DNA of 64,000 nt from Bacillota bacterium (GTDB lineage: Bacteria > Bacillota > UBA994 > UBA5500), in NCBI GenBank assembly GCA_029781045.1, contig JAKOXL010000001.1, positions 8,084 through 72,083 on the forward strand. Reading direction: 5' to 3'. Positions 2,402-62,090 of the stretch are shown here, in pieces. The notes beneath the pieces are model-generated. The model made no database searches and was not told the DNA's origin. It worked only from the letters and a program-made list of their open reading frames with translations. Position numbers and translations under genes: made by a program. Each line of letters starts with the position of its first letter. Position 1 is the first letter of the stretch.

Positions 2402-2624
2402 ACTCGCCGGCAATAAAAGCGACGTCGTATCAAAGCTGGCAACTCCATGGGGTCATTGGCCCAATGGGCAAAGCAGCCCGACAAAGGGCTAGGAACTTGA
2501 GAGTGTACTGAAGAAGTTGCCCATATGCGTTCGTTGCAGGCTACTAAGGCCCAATCAACGCGGTCGTCGTTGCTCTTGGCAGGCACTCTAATATGACCAC
2601 GGCTAAGGGGTACCTCAAAGAAAA

Positions 2625-2658
2625 CAGGGGGCTGTCTTGCGACAGCCCCCTGTTTTCA
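2625..2658. terminator. bidirectional intrinsic terminator hairpin (GGGGCTGTC..GACAGCCCC family) between etfA and trkH
   Basis: cagggggctgtc-ttgc-gacagccccctg followed by ttttc. Lies between convergent genes. Confidence 0.6.
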
Positions 2659-7078: not shown

Positions 7079-7109
7079 AGGGCTGTCGCAGAGACTATGC
7101 GACAGCCCT
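7079..7109. terminator. bidirectional terminator hairpin (GGGCTGTCGCA..GCGACAGCCC family)
   Basis: agggctgtcgca-gagactat-gcgacagccct. A T-run follows on the minus strand (cttttt). Lies between convergent osmC-like and membrane protein genes. Confidence 0.55.
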
Positions 7110-12060: not shown

Positions 12061-12157
12061 AGTAAGGCCTCCCTCTTGATTCTTATCACTTGGAACGGGT
12101 TTCCCCTTGTGTTTTATTTCTGTAGCCGTATCATTATCCCTGCTGGAAAAGATAAAA

Positions 12158-12181
12158 AGGGCTGTCGCAAAACAGCCCCTT
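12158..12181 (-). terminator. terminator hairpin (GGGCTGTCGCAAAACAGCCC) between the CBM-repeat gene and the M20 peptidase gene
   Basis: aagggctgtcgcaaaacagccccttat. A T-run follows on the minus strand (ctttttatctttt). Confidence 0.5.
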
Positions 12182-16022: not shown

Positions 16023-16117
16023 TGGCGGAGGAGGCGGGATTCGAACCCGCGACACGGTTTTTGACCGTGTACTCGATTTCCAGTCGAGCGCCTTAGACCA
16101 TCTCGGCCACCCCTCCA
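16023..16117 (-). tRNA. tRNA-Ser (anticodon GGA), class II with long variable arm, CCA encoded
   Basis: The reverse complement starts GGAGGGGTGGCCGAG...; anticodon stem-loop CTCGA-CTGGAAA-TCGAG; GGTTCGAATCC T-arm; 3' CCA. Confidence 0.85.
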
Positions 16118-24120: not shown

Positions 24121-24212
24121 TGGCGGAGAGAGTGAGATTCGAACTCACGGAGCAGGATCGCTGCTCACCCGCTTTCGAGGCGGGCGCCTTAAACCACTCG
24201 GCCATCTCTCCC
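24121..24212 (-). tRNA. tRNA-Ser (anticodon CGA), class II, CCA encoded
   Basis: The reverse complement begins GGGAGAGATGGCCGAGTGG; anticodon loop CTCGAAA; long variable arm; GGTTCGAATC T-arm. Confidence 0.85.
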
Positions 24213-24673
24213 TATTTTTCTCTTAACTCCGCAAAAAAGCGACGTAACAGCTGACTGCTTTCCTCAGCCAAAACCCCTGAGGTAACTTCCACCCGGTGGT
24301 TCAACCGTTCATCCCGCACCAGATCCAGCAAGCTACCGCAGGCACCAGCCTTCTTATCAGGGGCCGCATATACCAAATGGGGTATGCGGGCCTGCACAAT
24401 GGCTCCTGCGCACATAGGGCAGGGCTCCAAGGTAACGTAAAGCGTACACCTGGTGAGCCGCCAGCCGCCTAAAACTCGGTTGGCTTGGCGAATGGCCAGC
24501 ATCTCGGCATGGGCCGTGGCATCGCGCTCTGTTTCCCGCAAATTGTGGGCTTTAGCGATAATAGCACCGTCGCGTACAATGACGGCCCCCACCGGGGTCT
24601 CCCCCAACTCATAGGCCTTCCGCGCTTCCGCCAGTGCTATCTGCATAAAACTCTCATGGAGTTCTTGCATCGC
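24212..24673 (-). CDS. tadA: tRNA adenosine(34) deaminase TadA
   Basis: CDA-fold zinc motifs HAEMLAI...PCPMCAGAI. Start taken at MQELHESFMQIALAEA; the longer track ORF runs into tRNA-Arg. The stop codon abuts or overlaps the tRNA-Ser(CGA) 5' end. Confidence 0.8.
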   Translation of the reverse strand, partial: AMQELHESFMQIALAEARKAYELGETPVGAVIVRDGAIIAKAHNLRETERDATAHAEMLAIRQANRVLGGWRLTRCTLYVTLEPCPMCAGAIVQARIPHLVYAAPDKKAGACGSLLDLVRDERLNHRVEVTSGVLAEESSQLLRRFFAELREK

Positions 24674-24745
24674 CAACCACAACCCTTTAAGTCTATCTGC
24701 AAAGACAGACAGTGCGCCTCCCAGCGCACTTACCTTGATTGCTAA

Positions 24746-24821
24746 TGGCGCACCCGGAGGGAATCGAACCCCCGACACGCGGTTTAGGAAACCGCTGCTC
24801 TATCCACTGAGCTACGGATGC
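24746..24821 (-). tRNA. tRNA-Arg (anticodon CCT)
   Basis: Reverse complement GCATCCGTAGCTCAGTGGATAGAGC...; anticodon loop TTCCTAA; ...GGTTCGATTCC...CCA. Confidence 0.85.
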
Positions 24822-24827
24822 ATAAAA

Positions 24828-24904
24828 TGGCGCGCCCGGCAGGATTCGAACCTGCGACCACCGGATTCGTAGTCCGTTACTCTATCCAGCTGAGCTACGG
24901 GCGC
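24828..24904 (-). tRNA. tRNA-Arg (anticodon ACG)
   Basis: Reverse complement GCGCCCGTAGCTCAGCTGGATAGAGT..; anticodon loop CTACGAA; ..GGTTCGAATCC..CCA. Closely resembles canonical bacterial tRNA-Arg(ACG). Confidence 0.85.
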
Positions 24905-24912
24905 ATAAAAAA

Positions 24913-25008
24913 TGGCGGAGAGGGCGGGATTCGAACCCGCGACACGGCTTTGGGCCGTGTAACCGCTTAGCAGGCGGCCGCCTTCGACCTACTCGGCCAC
25001 CTCTCCGC
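24913..25008 (-). tRNA. tRNA-Ser (anticodon GCT), class II
   Basis: Reverse complement GCGGAGAGGTGGCCGAGTAGG..; anticodon loop CTGCTAA; long variable arm; GGTTCGAATCC; CCA. Confidence 0.85.
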
Positions 25009-25087
25009 ATCGCCTATCTATTGTAACACGTCTTCACCGGGCTGCGCAACCACCATTTACTGCCGCTAGCCCGAAAAGAGACTTTGC

Positions 25088-25178
25088 TGGCGGAGAGAGA
25101 GGGATTCGAACCCCCGGTCCCTTGCGGGATCACTGGTTTTCAAGACCAGCGCCATAAACCACTCGGCCATCTCTCCGC
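25088..25178 (-). tRNA. tRNA-Ser (anticodon TGA), class II
   Basis: Reverse complement GCGGAGAGATGGCCGAGTGGTTTA..; anticodon loop CTTGAAA; long variable arm; GGTTCGAATCC; CCA. Confidence 0.85.
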
Positions 25179-28212: not shown

Positions 28213-28245
28213 GGGGGCTGTCGCAAGACAGCCCCTTTGGTTTTT
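28213..28245 (+). terminator. intrinsic terminator after aspB (GGGGCTGTC-GCAA-GACAGCCCC plus T-run)
   Basis: ggggctgtc-gcaa-gacagcccc followed by tttggttttt. Confidence 0.65.
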
Positions 28246-28376
28246 ATTATGCTCTGGGGCAATCCCGGTAACGACAGATGGCCCGGTTGTCCTTGGCTGG
28301 ATGCCCTGGTTTTGCCACAGCCCTACGGAATGCAAAGAAAAGGAGGCTGTTTTGCGGCAACCCCTTCTTTTCCTAA

Positions 28377-38471: not shown

Positions 38472-38481
38472 GTGGTAAAAG

Positions 38482-38515
38482 AGAAGGGCTGTCGCAAGAC
38501 AGCCCTTCTTTCTTT
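38482..38515. terminator. bidirectional terminator (GGGCTGTC-GCAA-GACAGCCC family)
   Basis: agaagggctgtc-gcaa-gacagcccttct followed by ttctttc. Lies between convergent genes. Confidence 0.6.
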
Positions 38516-38579
38516 ACGGTATCCGCTGGCGGTGGTCGCTTGGGACATGTGAGATCCTAGTGCGAACACCCGTCAGTAG

Positions 38580-39512
38580 TTACTCTAAGACATATACTTT
38601 CATTTTCCGTCGACCAAACTTCTTCATTTCTTCATAGGTTTCCATAAAAATGTCTATCTTGTTGCCTTTTATTGCGCCACCCGTATCCATCACCTGATAG
38701 ATACCCGAGTACTTCTTTCCTACCGCATCTAAACCTTCCACATATACTCTGGTGTTCATAGGAAGAACTCTAAGGTCGGCGGCTATAGTCAGGCCCGCAA
38801 CAGCCGGCTTGCCAGAAGCGGTCATACCACCCCAAGCGTCGTCGGGTTTACCCGTAACCGGGTCGATATCAGCGGTATAAGCAGTTGCTTCTACTGTGAG
38901 CACCTTGCTGTAGCGCAATGTCTGACCACCTCGCGAGATGGTGGCAATGGTGCCCTCTTCGATCATTCTGTCCTGCTTTTCTACTACCGTTACCGTGTCT
39001 ATGAGTTTACGTTCCTGCTCTTGCCCATTTTCTTTTATTACTTGATAGGTTTTAATAACCTTACCGTTGATGCCCGGTTGTATTTCCCTGATCTCCCCCC
39101 GATTCAAAGATCGCGAGGCTACCCGAATAGTGCGATAAGGAACCACTTCCTCCTCTCGTAGCAATTCATGGGTTACCCGGACCACCTTTACCCGCATATC
39201 GTCTACTAGCGGACTAGCGGGATCGGGCTCCACCCGGTCCAATGGGCCCAGTGTCACACCTGCGAACCGGACCGCATCGCCTACCGTGCGAGCACTCGTC
39301 CAAACACTCCTCTCTTTGCCGTCCACCATCACGGTTATCCGCTTAGCGAACATGAGCCGTTGTAGAGTCTGGCTCGGTGTCAATTGACCAATATTCGAGG
39401 CTGCCAGCTGAGCATAGGGCACACGGTCGACAAAGAAGCTCATAACTAAGACCAGTACGCAGCCAACAATAGCCAAAAGGGCAAAGTGCAGGAGCTTTTT
39501 CGATCCTAACAT
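38580..39512 (-). CDS. YabE-like cell-wall binding protein (DUF348/G5/3D domain architecture)
   Basis: N-terminal TM segment. The central region resembles G5 and the C-terminal region resembles a 3D (RlpA-like) domain with conserved D..D..G. Synteny is near oriC, as for B. subtilis yabE. Confidence 0.55.
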   Translation of the reverse strand: MLGSKKLLHFALLAIVGCVLVLVMSFFVDRVPYAQLAASNIGQLTPSQTLQRLMFAKRITVMVDGKERSVWTSARTVGDAVRFAGVTLGPLDRVEPDPASPLVDDMRVKVVRVTHELLREEEVVPYRTIRVASRSLNRGEIREIQPGINGKVIKTYQVIKENGQEQERKLIDTVTVVEKQDRMIEEGTIATISRGGQTLRYSKVLTVEATAYTADIDPVTGKPDDAWGGMTASGKPAVAGLTIAADLRVLPMNTRVYVEGLDAVGKKYSGIYQVMDTGGAIKGNKIDIFMETYEEMKKFGRRKMKVYVLE

Positions 39513-39786
39513 ACAGGATCCTCCCTTCTTGCTTCTGCCAGGACATTATAGTTTAACTAGTCTCAGCAAGTCAAACCTAACGCCCTGATACCATTTTTGC
39601 CCAAGACACGGATCCCTATACGCCAAAGACTTCCCTTAATTATAAATATGCACTTTCTTACTATAAGATTGGCTATATACTATCGTCAAATACCTCTCAC
39701 GTCAAATGGTAGATGTAGTAATGACTAAGCCACCAGACTATGTATATAATCACAAGAGAAGACATGTAAGAAAGGGGACCCAGTAA

Positions 39787-40797
39787 ATGTCCGAAAAATT
39801 GGTTGAAATAGTACGCGGTGATCTGGTGGAGAGCATACACCGGGGCGACCTGGCTGTTGTGGATTATACCGGTCGTCTACTCTATTCGGTAGGCGACCCG
39901 CAAGGAAAGATTACATTTATTCGCTCGGCCTCTAAGCCGATCCAGGCCATTCCCATTATTACCAGTGGCGCTGCAGATCACTTCGGCTTTACCGAGCAAG
40001 AATTGGCCGTATTCTGTGCCTCCCACGCAGCGGAGCAAATCCATGTGGAAACAGTGCTGGGTATCTTGGAGAAAATTGGGCTCACAGCTTCTGCCCTGCA
40101 ATGTGGTCGCCATCTACCCTTTAACAAAGAAGCAGCCGATAAGTTGGTGCGCAGTGGACAAGAACCCAGCGAGGTCCATTGCAACTGCTCCGGCAAGCAT
40201 TCCGGCATGCTGGCACTCGCCCAACACATGGGTTGGGATGTGGCCAGTTATCTGAGCATTGAACACCCGGTGCAACAAGCCATGCTACAAAGTATGGCTA
40301 CCTTCGCTGGCATGGAAGCCAAAGATATTGCCATCGGTGTAGATGGCTGTGGCGTTCCCGTCTTCGGCCTGCCGGTGTATAACATGGCCCTTGCCTGGGC
40401 GCGGCTCGCTAACCCTGAGAGTCTAGATTCGGCCAATGCCCAAGCCGCCCAACGCATTACCCGGGCCATGACCGCCCATCCACTGTTAGTCGCTGGCACT
40501 GGACGTCTCTGCACTGGCCTTATGACCCATCTCAACGGTCGCTTAGTGGCTAAGAGCGGAGCCGAAGGGGTCTATTGCGTTGGTATTCTAGGACAAGGTA
40601 TCGGTATAGCCGTCAAAATCGAGGACGGTAACGGCCGGGCTACCGGACCCGCCATCATCGATGCTTTGAGACAAATAGGGTTCTTGACCCCGGCCGACTT
40701 GGAGAACTTGAAGGAATTCCACAACCCCATCATCTATAACCATCGGCGCGATGTGGTGGGCGAGACCCGCGCCGCTTTCACCCTCGTAAGACACTAA
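39787..40797 (+). CDS. asparaginase (Rhizobium-type L-asparaginase II family)
   Basis: N-terminal VEIVRGDLVESIHRGDLAVVD...FIRSASKPIQA pattern of the PF06089 family. 336 aa. Assignment is from memory. Confidence 0.55.
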   Translation: MSEKLVEIVRGDLVESIHRGDLAVVDYTGRLLYSVGDPQGKITFIRSASKPIQAIPIITSGAADHFGFTEQELAVFCASHAAEQIHVETVLGILEKIGLTASALQCGRHLPFNKEAADKLVRSGQEPSEVHCNCSGKHSGMLALAQHMGWDVASYLSIEHPVQQAMLQSMATFAGMEAKDIAIGVDGCGVPVFGLPVYNMALAWARLANPESLDSANAQAAQRITRAMTAHPLLVAGTGRLCTGLMTHLNGRLVAKSGAEGVYCVGILGQGIGIAVKIEDGNGRATGPAIIDALRQIGFLTPADLENLKEFHNPIIYNHRRDVVGETRAAFTLVRH

Positions 40798-40837
40798 GGT
40801 CCGATGCCTCCGCAGGCGCATAAAGTGCAGTCGCACT

Positions 40838-41066
40838 AAGGTTTTCAAGTACCCCGTGCGGATACTGCTATGGGGCCGTTGGTCATACGCACGGCGCGTT
40901 GGGCCCAACAATCAGTAGAACGAAGGAGCCAAGGGAAAGCAGCGACAACAGGCCCAGCTGCCCTTGAACAGCTCATTCCGACCGAGGGTGGGCACAGGCG
41001 CTCTAGTGTGACCACGGCCATCGGTAGAACAAACAACAAGGGGCTGTTTTGCGACAGCCCCTTTTA
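40838..41066 (+). repeat. copy 1 of a ~230-nt conserved noncoding element (candidate sRNA or MITE-like repeat) ending in a GGGGCTGT..ACAGCCCC terminator hairpin
   Basis: About 75% identical to 47349-47590. Shared blocks are gtcgcacta(a/g)gg, atacgcac(g/a)gcgcg, aaagcag(c/a)gacaa, agctcattccgac and gcgctctagt, then the family hairpin. Confidence 0.5.
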
Positions 41067-41158
41067 TGGTCTGGAGGGCAGTGGGCAAACAAGAGCCCTA
41101 GCACCCAACCGCTATCTGAGATCTTCCTAGGACAACCCTTCTTAACGGCAATTCTCAC

Positions 41159-42265
41159 TTAGGCACGGGAAAGCACGCTAATGCTGCCGTTCTTGCTAGC
41201 AGCCATCACCTGCGTTTTGATGGCCGCCTGCTGCCAGTTTTCCGTAGATGCCTTATAGTGTTGCTTATCCTCTACACTAGCCACAAGGGCTGGCAAATCA
41301 ACACTTACACGGCCGCTTCGTGTCTGCAGGTCCAGCTGGTACCCCCTGGCGTCTCCCGTAGCCAGCTCAACTTGCACCGAACCATTGGTGGTAGTTAGAG
41401 TAATGGTGCCATCGCTGGTGGGTTCCAGAACCCCGCGAATCGAGCCATTCTTGCTAGTTGCTAAGAGGGAACCAACTTGAGCCGTAACCGTTATGCTGCC
41501 GTTCTTGGTCTCCAATTGCCAATCATCATGGGATTGCCCTCGTACCTTGATGGAGCCGTTCTTGGTCACAGCCCTACCGGCACCACAAACCTCTTCCACG
41601 GAAATAGAACCGTTCTTGCTCACTAGATCCATCTGGGTCAGCAACCGACGAGGGATGGCAATGTCAAAGGAGACGGAGCCGCGGATTTCTTCGCTCACTC
41701 GCCAGGCCAACTGCAGTTCCCCATCTTTCTGTTCCTCGTTTTGCAGCAAATATTGCTCCACCAACTGCCGGGCCTCTGCCTCACTATCGGCTTGAACTCG
41801 AAAACGTAACTGCACCGCGATATGTTCATCATCACTGGCCCGCAACCGTAGGTTACCGTTCTTGCTACTAATGTCCAAGTGTAATCTCTCTACCGTATCG
41901 GGAATGGCAACGGTCCGCTGTTCTTCCCAGGTGTAATGGGTGCCCCAGTGGCCGCCCAAAAACCCCTGCAGCCAGTCGGCTAGGCTCTGCCCCTCTCCCA
42001 ACTCCTGACTAATAGCCGATCTCACCTCTTGTAGGGCATCCTCTACCTCACTGGTGATTTCCTCTCCGATCTCCCGCAGTTCCTGCCCCAGTTCTTCCAA
42101 CAATGATGGGCTTTCCCTCATCACCGGCACCGGGATAGGTCCAACCTCTGGAACCTCCGGGGGCACCGACGTCCCTTCCAGTGCCTTGAGCAGGGCCAGG
42201 GCCTCTTCCGAGTTGATACGCCCCTGCTCCAACAGTTTTAGAATCCGCATTCTCGCTTCCGACAT
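41159..42265 (-). CDS. DUF4097 (YvlB-like putative adhesin / beta-helical repeat) protein with N-terminal helical domain
   Basis: N-terminal MSEARMRILKLLEQGRINSEEALALLKA motif. The C-terminus has repeated KNGSI(x)V beta-strand repeats. Paralog of the upstream gene. Confidence 0.6.
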   Translation of the reverse strand: MSEARMRILKLLEQGRINSEEALALLKALEGTSVPPEVPEVGPIPVPVMRESPSLLEELGQELREIGEEITSEVEDALQEVRSAISQELGEGQSLADWLQGFLGGHWGTHYTWEEQRTVAIPDTVERLHLDISSKNGNLRLRASDDEHIAVQLRFRVQADSEAEARQLVEQYLLQNEEQKDGELQLAWRVSEEIRGSVSFDIAIPRRLLTQMDLVSKNGSISVEEVCGAGRAVTKNGSIKVRGQSHDDWQLETKNGSITVTAQVGSLLATSKNGSIRGVLEPTSDGTITLTTTNGSVQVELATGDARGYQLDLQTRSGRVSVDLPALVASVEDKQHYKASTENWQQAAIKTQVMAASKNGSISVLSRA

Positions 42266-46553: not shown

Positions 46554-47333
46554 ATGATGTTCTTTATTCCTAGACGCAAAATCCTTCTCCTCACCAGTCT
46601 GATATTAGTACTGGCCGTGGGTTTTACCGCCAGCCGCTTCTACTCACCGGAGCAAGCGGGGCAAGTGATCAGCACGTTGCTCAACTTCAACCGTAAGGTC
46701 CCTATATACTGTGTGCAAACTGATGAAAAGCGTATTGCCATCAGCTTCGATGCGGCCTGGGGCGCCGATCGTACCGATGAGTTACTGACCATTCTCGACG
46801 AGTACGATGTGAAAACCACCTTTTTCCTGGTGGCCTTCTGGCTAGAAAGATACCCGGAGGTGGCAGCCCGCATCGCTGCTGCTGGCCATGAAATTGGCAA
46901 TCATAGTGCCACTCATCCGCACATGGCCCAGCTTTCCAAAGAGCAAATCCGCCAAGAAATACTAACCACCCACCAGCTGATTAAGGAGATCACCCAGCAA
47001 GAAGCTAAACTATTTCGCCCACCCTTCGGCGAGTACAACAACCTGCTCTTAGATACCTTAGAAGAGTTGGGCTACTACACTATCCAGTGGAGCATCGATT
47101 CCCTGGACTGGCGTCCCACTACACCAGAGGAAATCGTACAGCGGGTAACCAGTAAGATAGCTCCCGGTGCCATCGTTCTCTTCCATAATAACGGGGAGCA
47201 TACACCGGCCGCCCTGCGACCCATATTGGAGTACTGTCGACAAGAGGGCTATGAGGTGGTGCCCATTTCCGAACTCTTAATCAAAGGAGATTACTATATC
47301 GACAAGAGCAACGGTATGATGAGACCCAAATAG
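46554..47333 (+). CDS. polysaccharide deacetylase family protein (NodB domain, PdaB-like)
   Basis: N-terminal TM segment. NodB motifs (FDAAWG, HSATHPHM, RPPFGEYN, LFHNNG). Confidence 0.75.
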   Translation: MMFFIPRRKILLLTSLILVLAVGFTASRFYSPEQAGQVISTLLNFNRKVPIYCVQTDEKRIAISFDAAWGADRTDELLTILDEYDVKTTFFLVAFWLERYPEVAARIAAAGHEIGNHSATHPHMAQLSKEQIRQEILTTHQLIKEITQQEAKLFRPPFGEYNNLLLDTLEELGYYTIQWSIDSLDWRPTTPEEIVQRVTSKIAPGAIVLFHNNGEHTPAALRPILEYCRQEGYEVVPISELLIKGDYYIDKSNGMMRPK

Positions 47334-47348
47334 GAGGCACATTAAGGG

Positions 47349-47590
47349 TGCCGTCGCACTAGGGTCTCTAGCATCCGAACCAGGAAGCTATTGCTATTGG
47401 GGCCGCAGATATACGCACAGCGCGCTGGACCCAATAATTGGGAGAGTGAGGGAGGCAAGGAAAAGCAGAGACAAGGGGCCAATTGCCTTGGGAGCCGAGC
47501 TCATTCCGACAGAGCTGGGCTGCGCTCTAGTATGGCCATGGCCCGCAGGTGCATAACGAAACAGGGGCTGTCGTGAGACAGCCCCTAATG
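47349..47590 (+). repeat. copy 2 of the ~230-nt conserved noncoding element (candidate sRNA/MITE-like), ending in the GGGGCTGTC-GTGA-GACAGCCCC hairpin
   Basis: See copy 1. Lies between convergent genes. Confidence 0.5.
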
Positions 47591-47601
47591 CTTTTCAAGG
47601 C

Positions 47602-48759
47602 CTATACCACCGAAGGTTCTCTGAACAACTCGCCACGGGCAAAGCGGCCTAGACTCATGGGCTCGATGGGAATCTCCGTTTTCTGTCCGAGGATACTCTG
47701 GGCCAACAGCACCCCCACCATGGGGGCGATCATAAAACCATGGCCGCTAAAGCCGCAGGCCAGATAGAAGCCGGGTACCTCCTCCACCGGCCCCAGAATG
47801 GGGGTTCTATCGGGCGTCATATTGTAAAGTCCCGCCCACTGGCGCACCACCCGGATATGCCGTAGGGGTGGCAGCAGCCAGGTTATTTTCTCAGCCATTT
47901 CCTCCAGGAACTGCCAACTAGCTTCCATATTATAGCCTGGCTTCTCCGTCGGATCCCCTAACCCCATGATGAAGCTGCCATGGGGAGTTTGCTGGCAGTA
48001 GAGGTTATGATGGAAAGACATTACCATGGGGCGCTGCATAGGTTCCACCGGCTCAGTAATAAGAATCTGATGCCGCTCCGAGTGGGTAGGAATCTCGAGG
48101 CCCACCATAGCAGCCACATCCTGCGACCAACCTCCTGCCGCGTTGACTACTACGGGGGTAGAAACATAGCCCCGGTCGGTATGCACCCCTTGGATGCGGT
48201 CGCCATCCCGCTCAATACCGGTGACCGTCGTATTGGTATAGATCTCGACTCCTAAGCGGCGTGCTGCCTTGGCATAGGCGTCGGTTACTTTAAAGGGATT
48301 GCAATGGCCATCGGTGGGGCAATAGGTGGCGCCCAACAGCTGCTCCGTGTTCAAATGGGGTACAACTTCCTTGGCCTCCGCCGGTGTCAACAGTTCTACC
48401 TGTAAGCCGTGGGCCTTTTGCAGGGCCACATTCTTTTTGAATTGCTCCCAGCCGGCTTCCGTATAGGCTAGCAGCAGATAGCCACCCTGGTTAAACTCAA
48501 TGTCATCGTCGTAGTCCAGTTCTTCATTCATGTTCTCAAACATACGCACACTGGCCATGGACATACGTAGGTTCATCTCCGTACCCCATTGGGCCCGCAC
48601 TCCAGCCCCACAGCGGCCGGTGGCTCCACTGGCCAAGAAATTTCGCTCCAACACACAGATATTGGTAAGCCCCCGCTTGGCCAGATTATAGGCAATAGAA
48701 ACACCGTTAACACCTCCACCAATGATTACCGCATCAGCAGTCTTCTTCACGGGGCTCAC
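47602..48759 (-). CDS. FAD-dependent oxidoreductase (DAO family; sarcosine oxidase beta / OoxB / proline dehydrogenase beta-like)
   Basis: N-terminal ADAVIIGGGVNGVSIAYNLAKRG dinucleotide-binding motif. 385 aa. Last gene of an overlapping five-gene operon. Confidence 0.75.
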   Translation of the reverse strand: MSPVKKTADAVIIGGGVNGVSIAYNLAKRGLTNICVLERNFLASGATGRCGAGVRAQWGTEMNLRMSMASVRMFENMNEELDYDDDIEFNQGGYLLLAYTEAGWEQFKKNVALQKAHGLQVELLTPAEAKEVVPHLNTEQLLGATYCPTDGHCNPFKVTDAYAKAARRLGVEIYTNTTVTGIERDGDRIQGVHTDRGYVSTPVVVNAAGGWSQDVAAMVGLEIPTHSERHQILITEPVEPMQRPMVMSFHHNLYCQQTPHGSFIMGLGDPTEKPGYNMEASWQFLEEMAEKITWLLPPLRHIRVVRQWAGLYNMTPDRTPILGPVEEVPGFYLACGFSGHGFMIAPMVGVLLAQSILGQKTEIPIEPMSLGRFARGELFREPSVV

Positions 48760-54482: not shown

Positions 54483-55310
54483 CTAACGTTTGGCAATACG
54501 GACCGTCACCGTTAGGTAATCTTCCTCGTCCTGCTCCATAACCTCCGCCTTGATACCGGCCTCTTTCATCAATCTTGCAGCATCGCGCACAGTATTGAGG
54601 AATATACGCACATCTTTTGGAACAAAACGGCGGACGGGTTTATGGGCCGTAGCCGCTACTTCCTCCGCACTGCTGCCTGCCAAATATTGCTCGATTATAT
54701 CTTCCGTTTGCTTAACGTTGAGGTTCTGAGCAATGGCCAACTCGGCCAACCGTAGCTGCGCCTCTGCCTCCTTCACCCGTAGCAAGGCACGGGCCTGTCT
54801 CTCATTGAGCTTCCCCGCCGCCAGCAAATTCTTAACCGGTGAAGTCAAGCCTAATAGCCGTATTTTATTGGCTATGGTTGACTGACTCTTTCCCAGCCGC
54901 AGGGCCAAATCTTCTTGTCGTATATCAAACTCATCAATCAGCTGCTGATATGCCGCTGCTTCTTCCAGCGGGTTGAGATCTTCCCGCTGCAGATTCTCAA
55001 TCAAGGCAGCTTGTGCCACTTCTCGATCCGTATATTCTTTAACTATAGCCGGAATAGTCTGCTGCTTGGCCAACTTGGCCGCCCGCCAGCGCCGCTCCCC
55101 GGCAATAAGCTCATAAACACTTCCTAAACGTCGTACGATGATGGGCTGAATCACACCCATCTGGCGTATGGAATCTGCCAATTCTTGTAATTTAGCCTCA
55201 TCAAACTGTCTCCGCGGCTGATAAGGATTTACTTTTATATCTTCTAATGGAATGCTGATGATTTGCTCCCCTGGCCCTGAGTTTCCTCCAAACCAACGCA
55301 CAGCCATCAC
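54483..55310 (-). CDS. noc: nucleoid occlusion protein Noc (ParB-like)
   Basis: ParB N-terminal motifs (VIQPIIVRR, LIAGERRWRAA). Position between rsmG and soj, as in Bacillus. Confidence 0.8.
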   Translation of the reverse strand: MMAVRWFGGNSGPGEQIISIPLEDIKVNPYQPRRQFDEAKLQELADSIRQMGVIQPIIVRRLGSVYELIAGERRWRAAKLAKQQTIPAIVKEYTDREVAQAALIENLQREDLNPLEEAAAYQQLIDEFDIRQEDLALRLGKSQSTIANKIRLLGLTSPVKNLLAAGKLNERQARALLRVKEAEAQLRLAELAIAQNLNVKQTEDIIEQYLAGSSAEEVAATAHKPVRRFVPKDVRIFLNTVRDAARLMKEAGIKAEVMEQDEEDYLTVTVRIAKR

Positions 55311-55371
55311 CCCTTCTCTCTCTTATTCTGCTTGCAAGGGCGTCTCTCCTTCCCGCTACAGCCAAATATGC

Positions 55372-56094
55372 TTAGAGCAAGGGGCGTTTCTCCGCCAACC
55401 CGGGACGACGCGGAAACTTGCTGGGAGTGGAACTGTACTTGTCTACCCGCACCAAGGTGCGGGCTGCACCAGAAGGCAATCGCCATTCGCAGGTCTTGCC
55501 CCTATCTCCCCCCAGAAGCGCCAAGCCCGGCCCCGCTTCCGCCAACTCCTCTGCCATCTCCGGACCTTTCTGAGCCACAAAACATCCGCCCACCCGCACC
55601 AAAGGCATACAATACTCCGCCAGAGTTGCCAGCCGAGCCACGGCGCGAGCCACTACTAAATCGTACTGTTCGCGGAAATGGGGGTCATGTCCTACCACTT
55701 CTGCCCGCTCGCAGACCACGCCAACCTGCTTTGCCAAGCCCAGCTCGTTCACTGCCATCTGCAGAAAACGGGTCTTCTTGTTAATGGAATCCAATAGTAC
55801 AACTTGCGTGTTAGGAAAGGCTATGGCTAGAACTAGACCAGGGAAACCTGCACCGGTACCCACATCTATCACACTTTCTACCGAGGCCATATCCACTGCT
55901 AAAGCCACCGACAGAGAATCCAGGAAGTGCAGTTCATAAATCTCTTGCAGACCAGTGATGCGGGTTAGATTGATCCTTTCATTCCACTCCTGCAAAAGCC
56001 GACTGTAATGGGACAACTGGTCTAAAGCTGTACTAGACAAAGAAACCCCTAGCCGCTCCGCTTGTGCTCGCAACCACCCATTGCTTTCACTCAC
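55372..56094 (-). CDS. rsmG: 16S rRNA (guanine527-N7)-methyltransferase RsmG (GidB)
   Basis: SAM-MTase motif (DVGTGAGFPG) and conserved synteny after mnmG. Confidence 0.9.
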   Translation of the reverse strand: MSESNGWLRAQAERLGVSLSSTALDQLSHYSRLLQEWNERINLTRITGLQEIYELHFLDSLSVALAVDMASVESVIDVGTGAGFPGLVLAIAFPNTQVVLLDSINKKTRFLQMAVNELGLAKQVGVVCERAEVVGHDPHFREQYDLVVARAVARLATLAEYCMPLVRVGGCFVAQKGPEMAEELAEAGPGLALLGGDRGKTCEWRLPSGAARTLVRVDKYSSTPSKFPRRPGLAEKRPLL

Positions 56095-56106
56095 AACCTA
56101 TTCCCC

Positions 56107-57975
56107 CTACTTATGGGCCTTGAGGGCCACCAGAAGTACACTGATGTCGGCCGGCGTAACACCCAGAATTCGACTGGCTTGTCCCACCGATTGGGGACGA
56201 TGTCGAGCCAGTTTCTCCCGCGCTTCCATAGACAAGCCCAATAGCCTGCTGTAGTCAAAGTCTTCGGGAATCCGCTTTTCCTCCAAACGCAAGAAGCGCT
56301 CCACACTCTCAATCTGTTTCTGGATGTACCCGGCATATTTGACCTCAATCTCCACCCGTTGACGGAGGGTAGCTGAGGCGGCTGCCACTGCTTCTGGAGC
56401 AAAGGGCAAGAGAGCCTCTAAGTTCACCTCGGGCCGCCGCAATAACTGGGCTAAAGACGCTCCCTGTGTCAGAGGAGAAGTACCTGCCGCTATTAGCACC
56501 TCATTGACTTCCGGGCTAGGCGGCACCACAGTGCTCTCCAGCAGCTCTTTCAGCTCCTCCATCTGGCGCACCAGTTCCCGGTGTTCTCTGATGGCCTCTT
56601 CCCCAACCAGGCCCACCTGCCAGCCCTTTTCCCGCAAGCGAACATCCGCATTATCATGACGCAAGAGCAAGCGATATTCGGCCGCCGACGTGAGCATTCG
56701 ATATGGCTCGCTCACACCCTTGGTGACCAAATCATCGATCAATACTCCAATATAGGCCTCTGAGCGCTTCAGGATCAGCGGTTCCCGTCTCCTTAAGAAT
56801 TGGGCCGCATTAATACCGGCCATTAACCCCTGGGCAGCCGCCTCTTCATAACCCGACGACCCATTTATCTGACCAGCGGAAAACAGCCCTCTAATGGCCT
56901 TAAACTCCAGCGATAACTTCAATTGTGTGGGGTCAATATAGTCATACTCAATAGCATAACCTGGCCGCAGAATCTCTGCCCTTTCCAGCCCCGGGATGGT
57001 GCGTAAAGCAGTATACTGCACGTCCTCCGGCATACTGGTGGAGAAGCCCTGCACATACATCTCATCGGTGTCATAACCTTCCGGTTCCACAAAAATCTGA
57101 TGTCTTTCCTTGTCTCGAAAGCGCACAACCTTATCTTCCAAGGAGGGACAATAGCGGGGTCCCACTCCTTCAATCTCTCCACTATAGAGCGGTGCTCGGT
57201 GCAGGTTCTCCAGGAAAATGCGATGTGTCTCAGCGTTGGTATAGGTCAACCAGCAAGACAACTGTTTCCCATAGCAGTTAAGGAGCCCAGAAAAACCCTC
57301 CGGCAGGTCATCGCCCGGTTGCTCCAACATAAGCCTGGTATTAACGGTCTTACCGCTTACCCGCGGCGGGGTACCTGTCTTAAACCGGCCCATGCGGATA
57401 CCCAGCTTCTGCAGACTAGCCGTAAGAGCTAGAGCAGGCTGCAGGCCGTTGGGGCCGCTGGCAAAACTGGTCTCCCCGATTATTATCCGCCCGCGTAGGT
57501 AAGTGCCGGTGGTAAGAATAACACAGGGGGCCAAAAAGACGGTACCCGTCTGTGTTTTTACTCCCCTCACTTGACCGTCTTCCACCAACAACTCATCCAC
57601 CATCGCCTGTCGTAAACTTAAGCCCTCTTGACTGGCCAAGACTTGCCGCATCCGGCTTTGATAGCGTTGCTTATCTACCTGGGCCCGCAGTGCCTGCACC
57701 GCTGGTCCCTTGCTGGTGTTTAACATGCGTACCTGTATGCAGCAGGCATCCACTGCCCGCCCCATTTCACCGCCTAAGGCATCGATCTCTCGCACAATAT
57801 GACCCTTAGCTGGACCCCCGACCGATGGATTACAAGGCATAAGAGCCACACTATCCAAACTGGAAGTCAGCATCAATACTCGGAAACCTAAACGGGCAGC
57901 AGCCAGACCCGCTTCACAGCCCGCGTGTCCAGCTCCCACAACGATCACATCGTAATTGCCTGCCACAAAACCCAT
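56107..57975 (-). CDS. mnmG: tRNA uridine 5-carboxymethylaminomethyl modification enzyme MnmG (GidA)
   Basis: [19 protein letters not shown] motif. Start at MGFVAG with a GGAGGG RBS. Confidence 0.9.
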
Positions 57976-57992
57976 TGTCTTGCATCCCTCCG

Positions 57993-59366
57993 CTATTTGC
58001 CGATGCAAAAACGACTAAATATCTCCTGCGCCAAGCCCGGACTAGCCTTAAGACCCACCATTTCACCTAGACGATCGGCGGCTGCCTGCAAATCGATTTG
58101 CACCATATCCAAAGGCCAGCCGGAAGCCACCGTTTGCTCTGCTGCTCTAAGGCTACCCAGGGCTTCTCGCAACAACTGCTCCTGCCTAACGTTGGCTACA
58201 AAGGGACTGTCCGGTTGTAATATGCCCTGAAGCACCAGGTCGGCTATGGCCGCCCGCAGCTCATCCAACCCCTCGCCGCTGATGGCAGCTACTCTAAATA
58301 CCCTCTCCTGTGCCAGACGCTCTTCATCGGCAGCCGATAACCCCAAAGGTAAATCTCTTTTATTCAGCACCACAAACCGCCGCTGTTCCTTCACCGCCGC
58401 CAAGGTAGTCAAGTCTTCCCGCTCCAAAGGTCGACTCTGGTCAATTACTACCAGCACCAAATCAGCTTCTTGCATGGTCTGCTGAGCCAAAGACACCCCT
58501 ATGCGCTCCACCGGATCTTCTGTCTCCCTTAACCCGGCTGTGTCCAAAAGGCGAATAGGAATGCCTGCAACAGAGAAATACTCTTCAATAACATCGCGGG
58601 TGGTACCAGCAATGTCGGTCACAATAGCCCTTTCCTTTCCCACCAGGGCATTCAAAAGCGAAGACTTACCCACGTTAGGGCGCCCCACGATGGCTACCTG
58701 CAGCCCCTCCCGTAGTACTCTTCCGGCAAAACTGGTGCTGAGTAAGAGCTCTACCTGATGGATAGCCTCCTCTAGGCCTTCTAACATGCGTCTACTAGTG
58801 ATTTCAGGAATATCATGTTCTGGAAAGTCAATGCTGGCTGCGGCCGTGGCCAACAACCCCATGATCTGCTCGCGAATAGCCAAGACCCGCTCCGAAAGCT
58901 CACCCCGCAGTAGGCGGCCCGCCTGTTCCAGTGCCGTCTTAGACTTAGCCTGAATAAGATCAATCACGGCTTCCGCTTGCATTAAATCCAGTTTGCCATT
59001 GAGGAAGGCCCGCTGGGTAAACTCACCTGGTTCGGCTAAACGTACCCCCAGGCGTAGTAGAAGAGCTAATATCTCCCGCGTAATCAAGGCGCCGCCATGA
59101 CTGTTTATTTCCACCACATCTTCGCCCGTGTATGAATTAGGCCCCGGCATATATGTAACTAGCACCTGGTCTAGCATCTGTTCCTTTTCATCTACGACAT
59201 AACCCAAATATAGGTGGCGAGCAGCAAAGCTCTTCTTCTCCCGTCCCCGGGTAGTACGGAAGACCCGCTGTAGAGTGGCGAGAGATTCCGGACCACTCAT
59301 GCGTACAATACCAATCCCGCTTTCTCCCGGAGCCGTAGCGATAGCTGCGATGGTTGTCTGCTCCAT
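57993..59366 (-). CDS. mnmE: tRNA modification GTPase MnmE (TrmE)
   Basis: G-domain motifs ([14 protein letters not shown]) and the C-terminal CIGK tetrapeptide. Confidence 0.9.
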
Positions 59367-59467
59367 TTTAATCCACCTCCCGGCTGTGATACTATATTAT
59401 ACCCTAGCGTCCCTAGTAAAAGAAAAACCCGTGGCAGCCCTTGCTGCCCGGGTTTCTGGCTCAGCAT

Positions 59468-60085
59468 CTACTTCAGCGCAATAACTACCTTCCGGTAGGG
59501 TTCTTCCCCTTCGCTATAGGTAACTATTTGGCTATCGTGTTGCAAAGCTGTATGGATAATACGCCGCTCATGGGCGCACATGGGCTCCAACATAATCCGC
59601 CGCCCCGTACGCTTTGCCTTTTCCGCTAACCAAGTAGCCAAGCGCAACAAGGCTTCTTCTCGCCTTGCCCGATAACCGCCGGCATCAAGCACTACCCGTT
59701 GCCGCGCTTCCGTGTTGCGATTATATACCACATTGGCCAAGTACTGCAGCGAATCCAGGGTTTGACCATGCTTTCCAATTACTAACCCTAGGCCTTGCCC
59801 TTCCAAATCCGCCTTGATAACTTCATCGGTTACCTTCACATCTACACGCACCCGGGCCCCCATACGTTCACAGACGCCTGTTAGAAAGTCGACCAGTCTC
59901 TGTAACGGATCCGGTTTTACAGTAACCTTAACTTTGGCCAATTTTCCCCCTAAAATACCAAAAAATCCTTTGCTCGGTTCCTCCAGTATCTCTGTTTCTA
60001 CCTGTTCCGAGCTAACTCCTAGTTCTGCTAGAGCTAAAGCTATGGCTTCCTCCACTGTCTTACCTTGCTTTACCACGCTTTGCAT
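59468..60085 (-). CDS. jag: Jag/KhpB (KH plus R3H RNA-binding protein)
   Basis: N-terminal Jag_N (MQSVVKQGKTVEEAIALALAELG) and a C-terminal R3H domain. Lies downstream of yidC. Confidence 0.85.
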   Translation of the reverse strand: MQSVVKQGKTVEEAIALALAELGVSSEQVETEILEEPSKGFFGILGGKLAKVKVTVKPDPLQRLVDFLTGVCERMGARVRVDVKVTDEVIKADLEGQGLGLVIGKHGQTLDSLQYLANVVYNRNTEARQRVVLDAGGYRARREEALLRLATWLAEKAKRTGRRIMLEPMCAHERRIIHTALQHDSQIVTYSEGEEPYRKVVIALK

Positions 60086-60770
60086 CTGGTAGCCCTCCCT
60101 CCTTCAAGCTATACTGGCGCTCTAAGAAGCGGGTAACGAGGTGATGTTGTATGATAGTAAAAACGTTGCGGGATACCCAATAAAGTCCTACAGCCACCGG
60201 GTAGCTAATGGTGATCCATCCCATGAAAATGGGCAAAATGAGGTTCATGGAGCGCATCATGGCCGCATCTTGGCCACTACCCTGGCTTATCTGCTGTTGC
60301 TGGATAACAGTTGTTAAGACAGAAAGAATTGGCACCACCAAATATCCAGGATTCTGCCGTATAAGCATCCAGAAGGTCTGCTGGGCATCAGGCAAAACAA
60401 GACTTAGACCCAAAAAGGAGGGAGCCGAACTAAATATCTCCGGCTGTCTTAAGGCACTAAACATGGCTATAATGATGGGAAACTGTATTAAGATAGGAAA
60501 ACAACCGGCTGCAGGGTTTATCCCATATTCTTTCCAAAGAGCTAATGTCTCTTCATTAACCTTATCGGGATCCTTGTACTTCTTTTTTATCTCCTCTACC
60601 TTAGGAGCAACCAACTTCATCTTATAAGAAAACTGCATTTGCTGTAAGTTCAAGGGAAAAGTTATAAGCATCACTACTAAAGCCATCCCAATAATGGCCA
60701 ATCCATAGCTTCCGGTAGCTTCAGCTAAGGAATTTAGAATGACGCTCATTAAATTGGTTAGAAAAGCCAA
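60060..60770 (-). CDS. yidC: membrane protein insertase YidC/OxaA (SpoIIIJ-type, short form)
   Basis: 236-aa 5-TM 60-kDa IMP family member. Synteny rnpA-yidD-yidC-jag. Confidence 0.85.
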   Translation of the reverse strand: MAFLTNLMSVILNSLAEATGSYGLAIIGMALVVMLITFPLNLQQMQFSYKMKLVAPKVEEIKKKYKDPDKVNEETLALWKEYGINPAAGCFPILIQFPIIIAMFSALRQPEIFSSAPSFLGLSLVLPDAQQTFWMLIRQNPGYLVVPILSVLTTVIQQQQISQGSGQDAAMMRSMNLILPIFMGWITISYPVAVGLYWVSRNVFTIIQHHLVTRFLERQYSLKEGGLPDAKRGKAR

Positions 60771-60790
60771 TTAAACTCCCTCCTCATACC

Positions 60791-61012
60791 CTAAACTAAT
60801 GGATCATAGCCGCCCGGGTGCAACGGATGACAGCGGAGTATCCGCCTTATCCCCAACAAAAGTCCTTTGCCTAATCCATACTTCTCCAAGGCTTGAATCA
60901 TATACTCGGAACACGTAGGGCGAAATCGACAGTTAGGGCCGAGAATAGGAGATAGAAAACGCCTATATAAACCTACCATCCCAATCAACCCTTTGGTTAA
61001 CAATCTACTCAT
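60791..61012 (-). CDS. yidD: membrane protein insertion efficiency factor YidD
   Basis: [38 protein letters not shown] matches the YidD family. Confidence 0.8.
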
Positions 61013-61346
61013 CCTGCCACAAACCTGCTTTCTGGGTCAGCTTGGCCAACGATTGGACAATTTGAGCATAACTCGCATCCCGTGCCGCAACCCGCACGAT
61101 TACTACCAAATGATAACCGGGCTTAACCTGTCGACTCTGGGCGCGCCAAGCTTCTCGTACCAAGCGTTTTAAGCGATTGCGCCCCACACTTCCCGCTACC
61201 TTACGGCTCACCGATATGCCGAGCTTCACGCCTGAAATCGATCGCGGTAAATAGTACAAAACCAAAAATCTATCAGCTACCGATTTGCCCTCTTGATAGA
61301 CAGCGCTAAAGTCACTGCGCTTGGTCAGGCGTTCTTCCTTGCGCAT
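61005..61346 (-). CDS. rnpA: ribonuclease P protein component
   Basis: 113-aa basic protein containing the RNR motif ([10 protein letters not shown]). Confidence 0.85.
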
Positions 61347-61434
61347 ACTTTAGCCTCCCAATCGCCACATTCTTAGTAAATTATACCACAATCCCCTGGC
61401 GTCCATGCGAAAAAAAGGCCACGCAGTCGCGGCC

Positions 61435-61569
61435 TTAAGCAGATAGCACTTTTCTCCCTCGCGCACGCCTTGCTTTTAGGACCTTGCGTCCGCTTGCCGT
61501 GCTCATACGCTTGCGAAAGCCATGTACTTTCTTACGTACCCGGTTATTGGGCTGAAAAGTTCGTTTCAC
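61435..61569 (-). CDS. rpmH: 50S ribosomal protein L34
   Basis: (M)[46 protein letters not shown] start with an AAAGGGGTG RBS; the longer track ORF is an upstream in-frame extension. Confidence 0.9.
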
Positions 61570-61689
61570 AGCGATACACCCCTTTCTCAGAACAAAACCC
61601 TGCAGTATCCCAGCCATTATAGCAAATAGGGAACCAGGAATCAATGTGATTCCCGCTGCTACCTGCGGGTTTGGATAAACTGGTTGTAC

Positions 61690-62020
61690 ACAGTTGTGGA
61701 TAACTCTATCTACAACCCTGTTAGTTCACATAACATGTGTCAATTTCACATAAAATGGGGCCATAATGACATCTCTTTGTGGAAAAGGTAGTAGATTTGG
61801 GCCTGTTTAGGTAACAAAATGGTAACAAGACTACTTTTTTATGTCTTTTATCCACTAAGTTATCCACAGCTTGTGGACAAGGTTGTTTATAACGTGGGCG
61901 AACGTTTAATCGTATCAGTTCTGGACAATACCCAATCTGACAATATTCGTGCCATCAGACATTTATCCACAGCTTTTGTGGACTTTTTGTGGGTAATTCC
62001 AGAAGTTATTCACAAATTAT
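61690..62020. promoter_or_regulatory. oriC part 1: DnaA-box cluster between rpmH and dnaA (includes the dnaA promoter region)
   Basis: Perfect TTATCCACA / TGTGGATAA boxes at 61695-61703, 61860-61868 and 61963-61971. At least six 1-mismatch boxes (e.g. 61848-61856, 61872-61880, 61978-61986, 61989-61997, 62007-62015). Confidence 0.75.
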
Positions 62021-62090
62021 ATGGCGTTTGTGGTAGAATTTATGTACGACTTGTTGAAAACTGTCAAACGAGGCGAGGGGGTATCAACAA

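Follow-up and report, generated by a model that had tools for sequence, protein, structure and literature searches.

Several families of small bacterial repeats have habits like those of the element described here. They include SPRITE, BOX and RUP (PMC3049150) as well as ERIC and Correia elements (PMC3184786). The present element is a non-coding repeat of 230-330 nt in a 64-kb stretch of DNA from a Bacillota bacterium (contig JAKOXL010000001.1), where the original prediction, made from the letters of that stretch, had noticed two related regions. The window hereafter means the full 64-kb stretch, and L-numbers (L002 and so on) denote loci or contigs examined outside it. We consider it probable, at roughly 60%, that the copies are lineage-specific, non-autonomous, non-coding interspersed repeats that sit between stop codon and terminator in the manner of SPRITE, ERIC and BOX, and that they exchange parts and decay. 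The repeat is found only in one group of uncultured Bacillota. The family is new and its kind is familiar; it is not a new conserved RNA gene.

The SPRITE is a small interspersed repeat with a terminator-like hairpin and a U-rich tract. It lies near the 3' ends of coding sequences with strong enrichment between convergent genes, has no clear target-site duplication (TSD) and no insertion sequence partner, and is confined to one species group (PMC3049150). The copies examined here resemble it in these respects. The authors who described SPRITE thought of co-option as a terminator (PMC3049150). The SPRITE is ~105 bp long and AT-rich, with an 18-bp duplex and no extra rod (PMC3049150), whereas the present unit is 230-330 nt long, G+C-rich, and carries a separate 150-240-nt rod upstream of a bidirectional terminator of ordinary size. 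The two are set apart by description, and sequence kinship is not expected because the lineages differ. The ERIC or IRU elements of Enterobacteriaceae are imperfect palindromes that lie in transcribed intergenic regions, often at gene 3' ends, are co-transcribed, and show internal indel variation and presence or absence at orthologous sites (PMC3184786). The present repeat is like them and would likewise be co-transcribed. The RNA hairpin of ERIC is reported to alter the stability of the upstream mRNA (PMC3184786). ERIC differs in its length of ~127 bp, its terminal inverted repeats (TIRs), its TA flanking motif and its lack of a terminator, and it belongs to another phylum and has no sequence similarity to the present unit (PMC3184786). 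The BOX elements of pneumococcus are similarly modular, with conserved ends and a variable middle that may be missing or enlarged while the fold stays intact, and are transcribed with neighbouring genes (PMC3049150). They contain tandem boxB units, TIRs and TSDs (PMC3049150), whereas in the present unit it is the apex of one hairpin that varies, and a TSD is not seen.

The REP, BIME and REPIN sequences are extragenic palindromes found mostly downstream of coding regions, between unidirectional or convergent open reading frames (ORFs). They are plausibly transcribed, and roles in termination and mRNA stabilisation have been proposed (PMC3733652). The solo family hairpins of the window behave like REPs. 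REPs differ in being 20-40 bp long and in their unpaired GTAG or CGTC tag, and the GTAG REPs are linked to RAYT transposases (PMC3733652). On inspection of the sequence, the solo hairpins have no GTAG or CGTC tag and are flanked by A and T tracts instead. The Correia elements (CREE) of Neisseria and the bcr1-type repeats of the Bacillus cereus group, both listed in PMC3184786, are long-hairpin repeats of 100-160 bp that are co-transcribed with the genes beside them and can undergo RNA processing; they differ in their defined TIRs, their TA or TTTAT duplications and the lack of a built-in terminator. The present repeat is a sequence member of none of SPRITE, ERIC, BOX and REP, which are its closest analogues in behaviour. 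They already show such a life-style, and no new category is opened. A ~190-bp intergenic repeat of Bacillus subtilis, reportedly described by Kunst et al. in 1997, is a further lead only; it has a different sequence and comes from a different organism.

Copies in the window and their fold

The regions at 40825-41066 (copy 1) and 47346-47590 (copy 2) are homologous. Within the 64-kb window, blastn gives 71.4% identity over 259 nt (E 8.5e-25), and a MAFFT alignment of 40800-41100 with 47310-47630 gives 78% mean column identity from end to end. The similarity is real and far beyond chance. The end-to-end similarity of ~75% in the original prediction is thus borne out, and every conserved block that it named is found in the alignment. 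The terminator hairpin that it placed at both ends is present as GGGGCTGT-N6-ACAGCCCC at 41040-41061 and 47564-47585. Its claim that the regions are unlikely to code for protein also stands: the copies differ by indels of 2, 3, 2 and 4 nt, and six-frame translation across them finds no frame that is open or shared and no conserved ORF, so that a protein-coding reading is rejected. Both copies are oriented on the + strand between convergent genes, as predicted. Pfam assigns Asparaginase_II (+) upstream of copy 1 with DUF4097/SHOCT (-) facing it, and Polysacc_deac_1 (+) upstream of copy 2 with a DAO oxidoreductase (-) facing it. The description as two paralogous elements was right in its homology and wrong in its count. 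An nhmmer search with a profile of copies 1 and 2, and later of 11 long copies, brings the window to three long copies and three short derivatives (Table 1).

The full unit consists, in this order, of a leader of ~45 nt, a rod-like hairpin of 150-240 nt, an A-rich tail of ~20 nt, a terminator hairpin and a T tract. The leader has the consensus (GGGG)CTGTCGCACTAAGGTTTTCAAGTACCC..., and that of copy 1 has homologues in L008, L009, L010, L015, L019, L018 and copy 2. Helices P1 (GGCCGUUGGUCAUAC / GUAUGACCACGGCC) and P2 make up the base of the rod. Beyond them come a large internal loop and P3-P5, and the apex ranges in length from about 10 to 130 nt; copies 1 and 2 are short-apex versions. Single-sequence folds of 10 copies give this one common rod. 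The internal-loop sequence GCTCATTCC is well conserved. P1 is the true closing helix of the rod, a 15-bp inverted repeat that is internal and not terminal. The original prediction had instead proposed a closing helix or TIRs formed by the end blocks CACTAG and CTAGTG. Copy 1 has CACTAA...CTAGTG and copy 2 CACTAG...CTAGTA (5/6 complementary bases each), and the family consensus CACTAA / CTAGTA has 4/6. This helix is rejected because the consensus is not complementary and the blocks are unpaired in all predicted folds; instead, a deletion in L024 has used them as a CTAG microhomology.

The three long copies in the window differ in how well the rod is kept. In copy 1, P1 pairs 40872-40888 with 41006-41019, P2 is formed by AGCGC/GCGCU, UUG/CAG and GCCCAA/UUGGGC, and the large internal loop is followed by a short apex. 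Its minimum free energy is -69 kcal/mol (z = -4.57), and 0/200 shuffles are equally stable. In copy 2, P1 and P2 are partly broken, 27/39 model pairs are kept, the 3' core lies at 47522-47542, and the fold is no more stable than shuffles (z = -0.71). The third copy lies between genes for ETF-alpha (+) and TrkH (-) (Pfam). It keeps GGUCAU/AUGACC of P1, AAAGCAGC..GACAA, the 3' core (2583-2603), the tail and the hairpin (2625-2652), and has lost matching segments from both strands of the rod. It is not recovered by the covariance model (CM) R1 at E<=1 and folds no better than shuffles (z = -1.41). Copy 1 is thus the only one of the three that folds significantly better than shuffled sequence.

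Covariation was evaluated on a 48-pair structure drawn by hand and a MAFFT alignment of 13 related rods. Paired cells make up 89.4%, against 31-42% with slid partners. Pair changes on both sides number 9, against 3.2 +/- 1.3 in shuffles (0/500) and 2-4 in slid controls. Compensatory changes include two in P2, C-G to U-A (L016) and G-C to A-U (L005), and one in P1, where the divergent L034 copy has C-G changed to U-A. The pairing of the rod is maintained, and the support from covariation, beyond the controls, is modest. Most copies have mono-shuffle z-scores of -3 to -9. The + strand is slightly more stable than the - strand in 10/13 copies, and in the 13 copies G-U pairs outnumber A-C pairs by 36 to 12 cells, mostly through three inherited pairs. 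This asymmetry and the strand difference lean weakly towards action as RNA over action as DNA. The 5' strand of P2 in most rods (e.g. window 40898-40907) holds a 10-nt perfect palindrome, TTGGGCCCAA. The model has it paired to UUGGGC of the 3' strand; it could also self-pair with a second copy or be a protein site.

Table 1. Positions of copies, derivatives and solo hairpins of the repeat in the window
Feature	Position	Strand	Remarks
Copy 1 leader (GTGCAGTCGCACTAAGGTTTTCAAGTACC...)	40825..40871	+	Starts 27 nt past the Asparaginase_II stop codon at 40797
Copy 1 rod, a single hairpin, long and irregular	40872..41020	+	CM R1 133.9 bits, E 8.5e-34
Copy 1 3' core module GCGCTCTAGTGTGACCACGGC	40998..41018	+	Most conserved 21-mer of the family; 3' strand of P2/P1
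Copy 1 A-rich tail (41021-41037), bidirectional terminator hairpin (41038-41063) and T tract	41021..41070	.	Hairpin AAGGGGCTGT-TTTGCG-ACAGCCCCTT; - strand scored as terminator; + strand tail TTTTATGG
Degenerate 3' module and tail	41031..41119	-	nhmmer model positions 243-338, E 9e-9; downstream of convergent gene 41159..42265, facing copy 1
Copy 2 leader (GGGTGCCGTCGCACTAGGGTCTC...)	47346..47397	+	Starts 12 nt past the Polysacc_deac_1 stop codon at 47333
Copy 2 rod, homologous to copy 1 rod	47398..47544	+	CM R1 97.9 bits, E 5.4e-24
Copy 2 tail, followed by its bidirectional terminator hairpin AGGGGCTGTCGTGAGACAGCCCCT (47563-47586)	47545..47590	.	Terminator scored on both strands
Third, divergent long copy	2440..2652	+	nhmmer E 4e-13 to 6e-13; core pattern match; alignment
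Internally deleted copy	38478..38575	-	nhmmer; leader GGGTGTTCGCACTAGGATCTC, then GCGACCACCGCC, tail, hairpin; downstream of 3D-domain gene 38580..39512 (-)
3' fragment: P1 end, tail, degenerate hairpin GGAGGCTGTTTTGCGGCAACCCC	28290..28371	+	nhmmer E 2e-5 to 3e-5; 60 nt past solo family hairpin 28213-28236
Solo family terminator hairpin (AAGGGGCTGTTTTGCGACAGCCCTTT on - strand)	12156..12181	-	
Further solo family hairpins	7081-7107 and 28213-28236		
Hairpins with the shared stem	2625-2652, 7081-7107, 12156-12181, 28213-28236, 28343-28364, 38483-38510, 41038-41063, 47563-47586		

The core pattern GCRCTCTARTRTGRCCAYGGC has 3 matches in the window against 0.02 expected. The nhmmer score of the degenerate module that faces copy 1 is inflated because the two share one hairpin.

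Terminators, gene context and the wider family

The stem GGGCTGT/ACAGCCC of the terminator hairpin occurs in the window 6 times exactly against 0.01 expected. Terminator stems are 10-14 bp long and G+C-rich, with A tracts on the 5' side and T tracts on the 3' side, and are terminator-like on one or both strands. By sequence scoring, the hairpin and T tract are able to act as an intrinsic terminator, as in SPRITE. About half of the strong terminator-like hairpins of the window share the stem GGGCTGTCGCA...TGCGACAGCCC, whether or not the remainder of the repeat is present, which in effect makes this hairpin a dispersed palindromic repeat in its own right. At L032 8553-8585, the site orthologous to that of copy 2, there is no element and a 33-nt perfect palindrome of the family hairpin is found, GGGGCTATCGCAAAAG-G-CTTTTGCGATAGCCCC, which carries a compensated G-to-A / C-to-T change.

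The leader begins with a copy of the left arm of its own terminator, and this holds for three versions that differ in sequence (consensus, L013 and L034). In young copies, the duplex of leader and right arm reaches -24 to -30 kcal/mol against -12 to -25 kcal/mol for the terminator hairpin. In the diverged copies (L009, copies 1 and 2 of the window, L013, L016 and L034) the duplex has -7 to -18 kcal/mol and the terminator hairpin about -13 to -21 kcal/mol (-18 to -21 except in L034). A leader:terminator closing helix (P0) acting as a switch was rejected on this evidence, since the duplex decays while the terminator is maintained. The leader arm is read as history and not as a switch because of this decay, because the leader of L009 does not follow its covarying terminator, and because the repeat in L034 is direct and extends beyond the palindrome.

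In nearly all cases a copy begins 2-100 nt past the stop codon of a same-strand ORF. Convergent junctions make up about half of the loci, and between co-directional neighbours the copies are sense-oriented in all cases except one (L004 5762-5949). These raw proportions, taken over the loci examined, match the placement of SPRITE near coding-sequence 3' ends and at convergent junctions. A crude consensus scan of 3 copies finds no sigma-70-like site in or before the leader, and the candidate leader promoter TTCAAG-18-TATAGG fails that scan and was rejected. The simplest reading of the position is that the unit is the 3' untranslated region (3'UTR) plus terminator of the upstream gene. Lying between stop codon and transcript end, it is most likely co-transcribed as 3'UTR and supplies the terminator. 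The window spans the replication origin region (54483-63443), with dnaA on the + strand at 62091-63443 and yidC, jag, mnmE, mnmG, rsmG and parB on the - strand. The negative GC skew over 1-60 kb, together with the position of the origin, means that the three long copies follow genes that are head-on to replication.

Outside the window, scans of genome and metagenome collections were baited with the 21-nt core GCRCTCTARTRTGRCCAYGGC, and a few chance matches were set aside. About 20 genuine further loci come from the Bacillota metagenome-assembled genomes CALNBW01 and JAMNZE01 and from the metagenomes MTKW01, OWOZ01 and UOOI01 (bioreactor/fermentation). With these and the further copies in the window, the count of copies that the original prediction had called for amounts to more than 25 loci in total. 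Bin_42 (GCA_023622465.1) has at least 6 copies. Four independent short-read assemblies are broken inside or at the repeat (contig ends of L027, L028, L030 and L033), as would happen with a repeat of high copy number and high identity. A CM R1 search of 301 kb of fetched DNA adds no full copy, and the relatives at 70-72% protein identity yield none; in them the family is undetectable with both nhmmer and the covariance model. In L006 (3844-3960, - strand) the P1 3' strand is followed 44 nt later by the P1 5' strand (GGCCGTTGGTCATACGCACAG), so that their order is swapped, and both halves are followed by CACAGAAGTTG.

The repeat matches no described RNA family. Rfam at gathering thresholds returns only tRNAs for the whole window; 6S, raiA, OLE, HEARO, T-box, riboswitches and others do not reach the threshold. 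At E<=10, the two regions have only chance-level matches, to the terminator, and at E<=1 the long-form copies L009, L005, L013, L004 and L002 have none. A known RNA family is thus rejected. Additionally, blastn against plasmid and phage collections finds no similar DNA and a pattern scan of viral contigs finds no match, on which a plasmid, phage or viral origin was rejected. The core motif is in no paper found by text search of the literature.

Syntenic sites, exchange and decay

Syntenic contigs were reached through asparaginase homologues at 89%, 83%, 75% and 70-72% protein identity. After the asparaginase gene, the window carries a full unit, the 89% relative only GTGCTCTAGTATGACCACGGCC and the terminator, the 83% relative a degenerate core with a different hairpin, and the 75% and 70-72% relatives a plain terminator. 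After the deacetylase gene, the window has copy 2, the 89% relative a leader and 3' half (L031/L025), and the 83%, 75% and 70-72% relatives nothing (no element in L032, L034 or L038). At the 38.5-kb junction a copy is present in the window only, and 6 relatives (89%, 83%, 75%, 70-72%) have a plain terminator. There the outer stem of the window hairpin is orthologous to that of L029 and its inner part is of family type; the comparison of filled and empty sites shows no target duplication. Full-length conservation is found at neither orthologous site of copies 1 and 2 in the 89% to 70-72% relatives. The 75% relative (L034) has a divergent copy of its own, a ~350-nt insertion in the promoter region of the asparaginase gene, which is conserved apart from it. 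The stretch upstream of this gene (window 39512-39787; L034 9367-10001) is conserved in four lineages. Its conserved blocks include CACGTCAAAT and TATGTATATAATCAC, the latter probably the -10 region, and the L034 insertion lies between them.

Copies at different loci share 3' parts. L010 and L025/L031 are identical over 99 nt, from GAGCTCATTCCC to the hairpin end, and over the same part L025 is ~70% identical to its orthologue, copy 2 of the window. Similarly, copy 1 and L018 have 96.8% identity over a 94-nt 3' tract and unrelated 5' parts. Deletions lie at short direct repeats (microhomologies) in L002, L018 and L024. Some copies once taken as 5'-truncated are internal deletions, because a diverged leader is kept (L025, L024, window 38478-38575). 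A retroposon-like 5' truncation, suggested by the 3'-anchored fragments, is weakened by these leaders and by the bias of the scans towards the core.

The preferred reading orders these observations as follows. A full unit would be co-transcribed as the 3'UTR of the upstream gene, and its hairpin, to judge from its position, would be a bidirectional intrinsic terminator. By analogy with ERIC, Correia and REP, the RNA rod would affect the stability or processing of the 3' end of the upstream mRNA. The family would have spread to many terminator-proximal sites. There the shared hairpin would anchor recombination or gene conversion, through which copies trade their 3' parts; internal and 5' deletions, frequently at microhomologies, would later erode them. 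The result would be a series from full units down to bare family-type terminators. With modest confidence, the sequences favour such hairpin-anchored recombination or gene conversion as the mode of spread. A further proposal, speculative and unlikely as a whole, is that the repeat spreads without transposition altogether, by hairpin-anchored copy-choice or gene conversion, as a self-propagating terminator cassette whose rod and core are kept through their action on host mRNA. Many terminators share one palindromic stem, and a 3' end stalled or broken inside one such hairpin could pair with another copy, whichever way that copy points. Copying would run over a varying stretch of the neighbouring 3'UTR cassette, with return at a microhomology, and the cassette would rewrite the 3' ends of unrelated genes. 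Conversion of this kind would explain the terminator-anchored partial series, the mosaics, the identical 3' tracts at different loci, the face-to-face modules sharing a hairpin at 41031-41119 and the half-converted 38.5-kb hairpin.

Several points weigh against the repeat reading. At an orthologous site (window, L029, L032) the flanks have diverged and a 20-nt 3' core (GCTCTAGTATGACCACGGCC) has been kept; this may be due to gene conversion, and a sequence-specific function could account for it too. Covariation and the slight excess of G-U pairs indicate some selection on pairing, which pure junk does not predict. The apparent universality of the 3' core is partly an ascertainment effect, because the collection scans used it as bait; its retention at two protein-anchored syntenic sites is free of this effect. 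L010 and L025 probably belong to the same genome, to judge from their shared metagenome. Finally, no transposase partner, consistent TIR and TSD, or clean duplicated empty site was found.

If the repeat reading is true, it adds an uncatalogued repeat family to an uncultured Bacillota lineage of digesters and bioreactors, and this family is the source of about half of the strong terminators in the 64-kb window next to the origin. The repeat would fragment short-read assemblies and be a useful marker for binning and scaffolding. Housekeeping genes would carry a natural 3'UTR series (full rod, half rod, core only, bare hairpin), which could serve tests of the effects of long hairpins on mRNA stability and of bidirectional termination in Firmicutes.

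Competing explanations and side observations

The original prediction had left a choice between a new small RNA (sRNA) family and a repeat like a MITE (a miniature inverted-repeat transposable element). The element is indeed structured, non-coding, absent from Rfam, dispersed and multi-copy, and this last trait favours the repeat; neither independent sRNA genes nor a classical MITE is favoured. A classical MITE would be a deletion derivative of an insertion sequence, moved in trans by a transposase, with TIRs, a fixed TSD and a preference for terminator hairpins. Like a MITE, the repeat is small (<~400 bp), with a long hairpin and presence or absence at orthologous sites, and one copy has both ends in spite of an internal deletion. 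Young copies carry inverted repeats in their outermost 12 nt (GGGGCTGTCGCA ... TGCGACAGCCCC), but these have decayed in diverged copies and are identical to the terminator arms. An 8-11-nt direct repeat, (A)GGGGCTGT, surrounds the body in several copies; it is one arm of the terminator hairpin and hence need not be a target duplication, and in L009 the leader arm does not track the terminator arm. The sole candidate for a fixed-length TSD is a 9-nt direct repeat in L034, ATACCGTTC, which extends past the palindrome and has GAGACCACTGA / TCAGCAATCTC immediately inside it. This direct repeat fails to frame the inserted segment, as the insertion exceeds the interval between the direct repeats. 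The copies examined have no consistent flanking duplication and no consistent pairing of TIRs with a TSD of the classical kind, no transposase gene is annotated beside any copy in the annotated or syntenic loci, and the 38.5-kb site, with its orthologous outer stem and converted inner part, is filled without duplication. The mosaics with identical 3' parts and unrelated 5' parts also point to recombination over transposition of whole elements, and a classical MITE is unlikely. A bona fide sRNA family, with transcripts of its own or derived from 3'UTRs, could act in trans through the conserved single-stranded loop CAUUCCCACAG or through pairing of the P1 5' strand (GGCCGUUGGUCAUAC) with solo 3' cores in other mRNAs. 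This would fit the covariation of the rod, the slightly better fold of the + strand, the intrinsic terminator that ends each unit, the conserved internal loop, the 3' core kept at an orthologous site in three lineages, and the divergent L034 copy, which lies away from any upstream gene. The lack of a promoter-like site, the start next to a stop codon, the truncated or absent orthologues and the lost folding (2/3 of the long window copies) argue against conserved, independently transcribed sRNA genes. As many copies are fragments and relatives at 70-72% protein identity lack the family, we hold this explanation to be quite improbable.

Two further explanations have very little to recommend them. 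One is a cis-acting 3'UTR switch in which the leader arm (GGGGCUGUCGCA) and the left arm of the terminator compete for the right arm (UGCGACAGCCCC), so that folding of the rod sets read-through. It is attractive for young copies, where the leader:right-arm duplex is the stronger, and for the consensus, L013 and L034 versions, each of which begins with a copy of the left arm of its own hairpin. The history of the leader arm set out above speaks against it, and the adjacent left arm should win kinetically; such a switch is most improbable. The other is an element that acts as DNA, a cruciform or protein-binding site formed by the inverted repeat and the palindrome TTGGGCCCAA and serving, for example, to organise the chromosome around the origin. 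Copies are dense in the window, which spans oriC, the two strands differ little in how well they fold, the rod holds its 10-nt palindrome, and the swapped P1 strands of L006 are still inverted repeats. A DNA-binding site would not be expected to show strong sense orientation and placement between stop codon and terminator, the consensus helices hold G-U pairs that are A-C mismatches on the other strand, and proximity to the origin is established for the window copies only. A role of this kind is accordingly given hardly any weight.

Some features near the copies stand apart from the repeat. A T-box leader (99.8 bits) at L005 562-773 starts 24 nt past an element without terminator. A ribosomal protein L10 leader in L013 (2389-2526) lies ~1 kb from the L013 copy (3573-3873). 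The window also holds six tRNA genes, five of them clustered (16026-16116 and 24124-25176, - strand).

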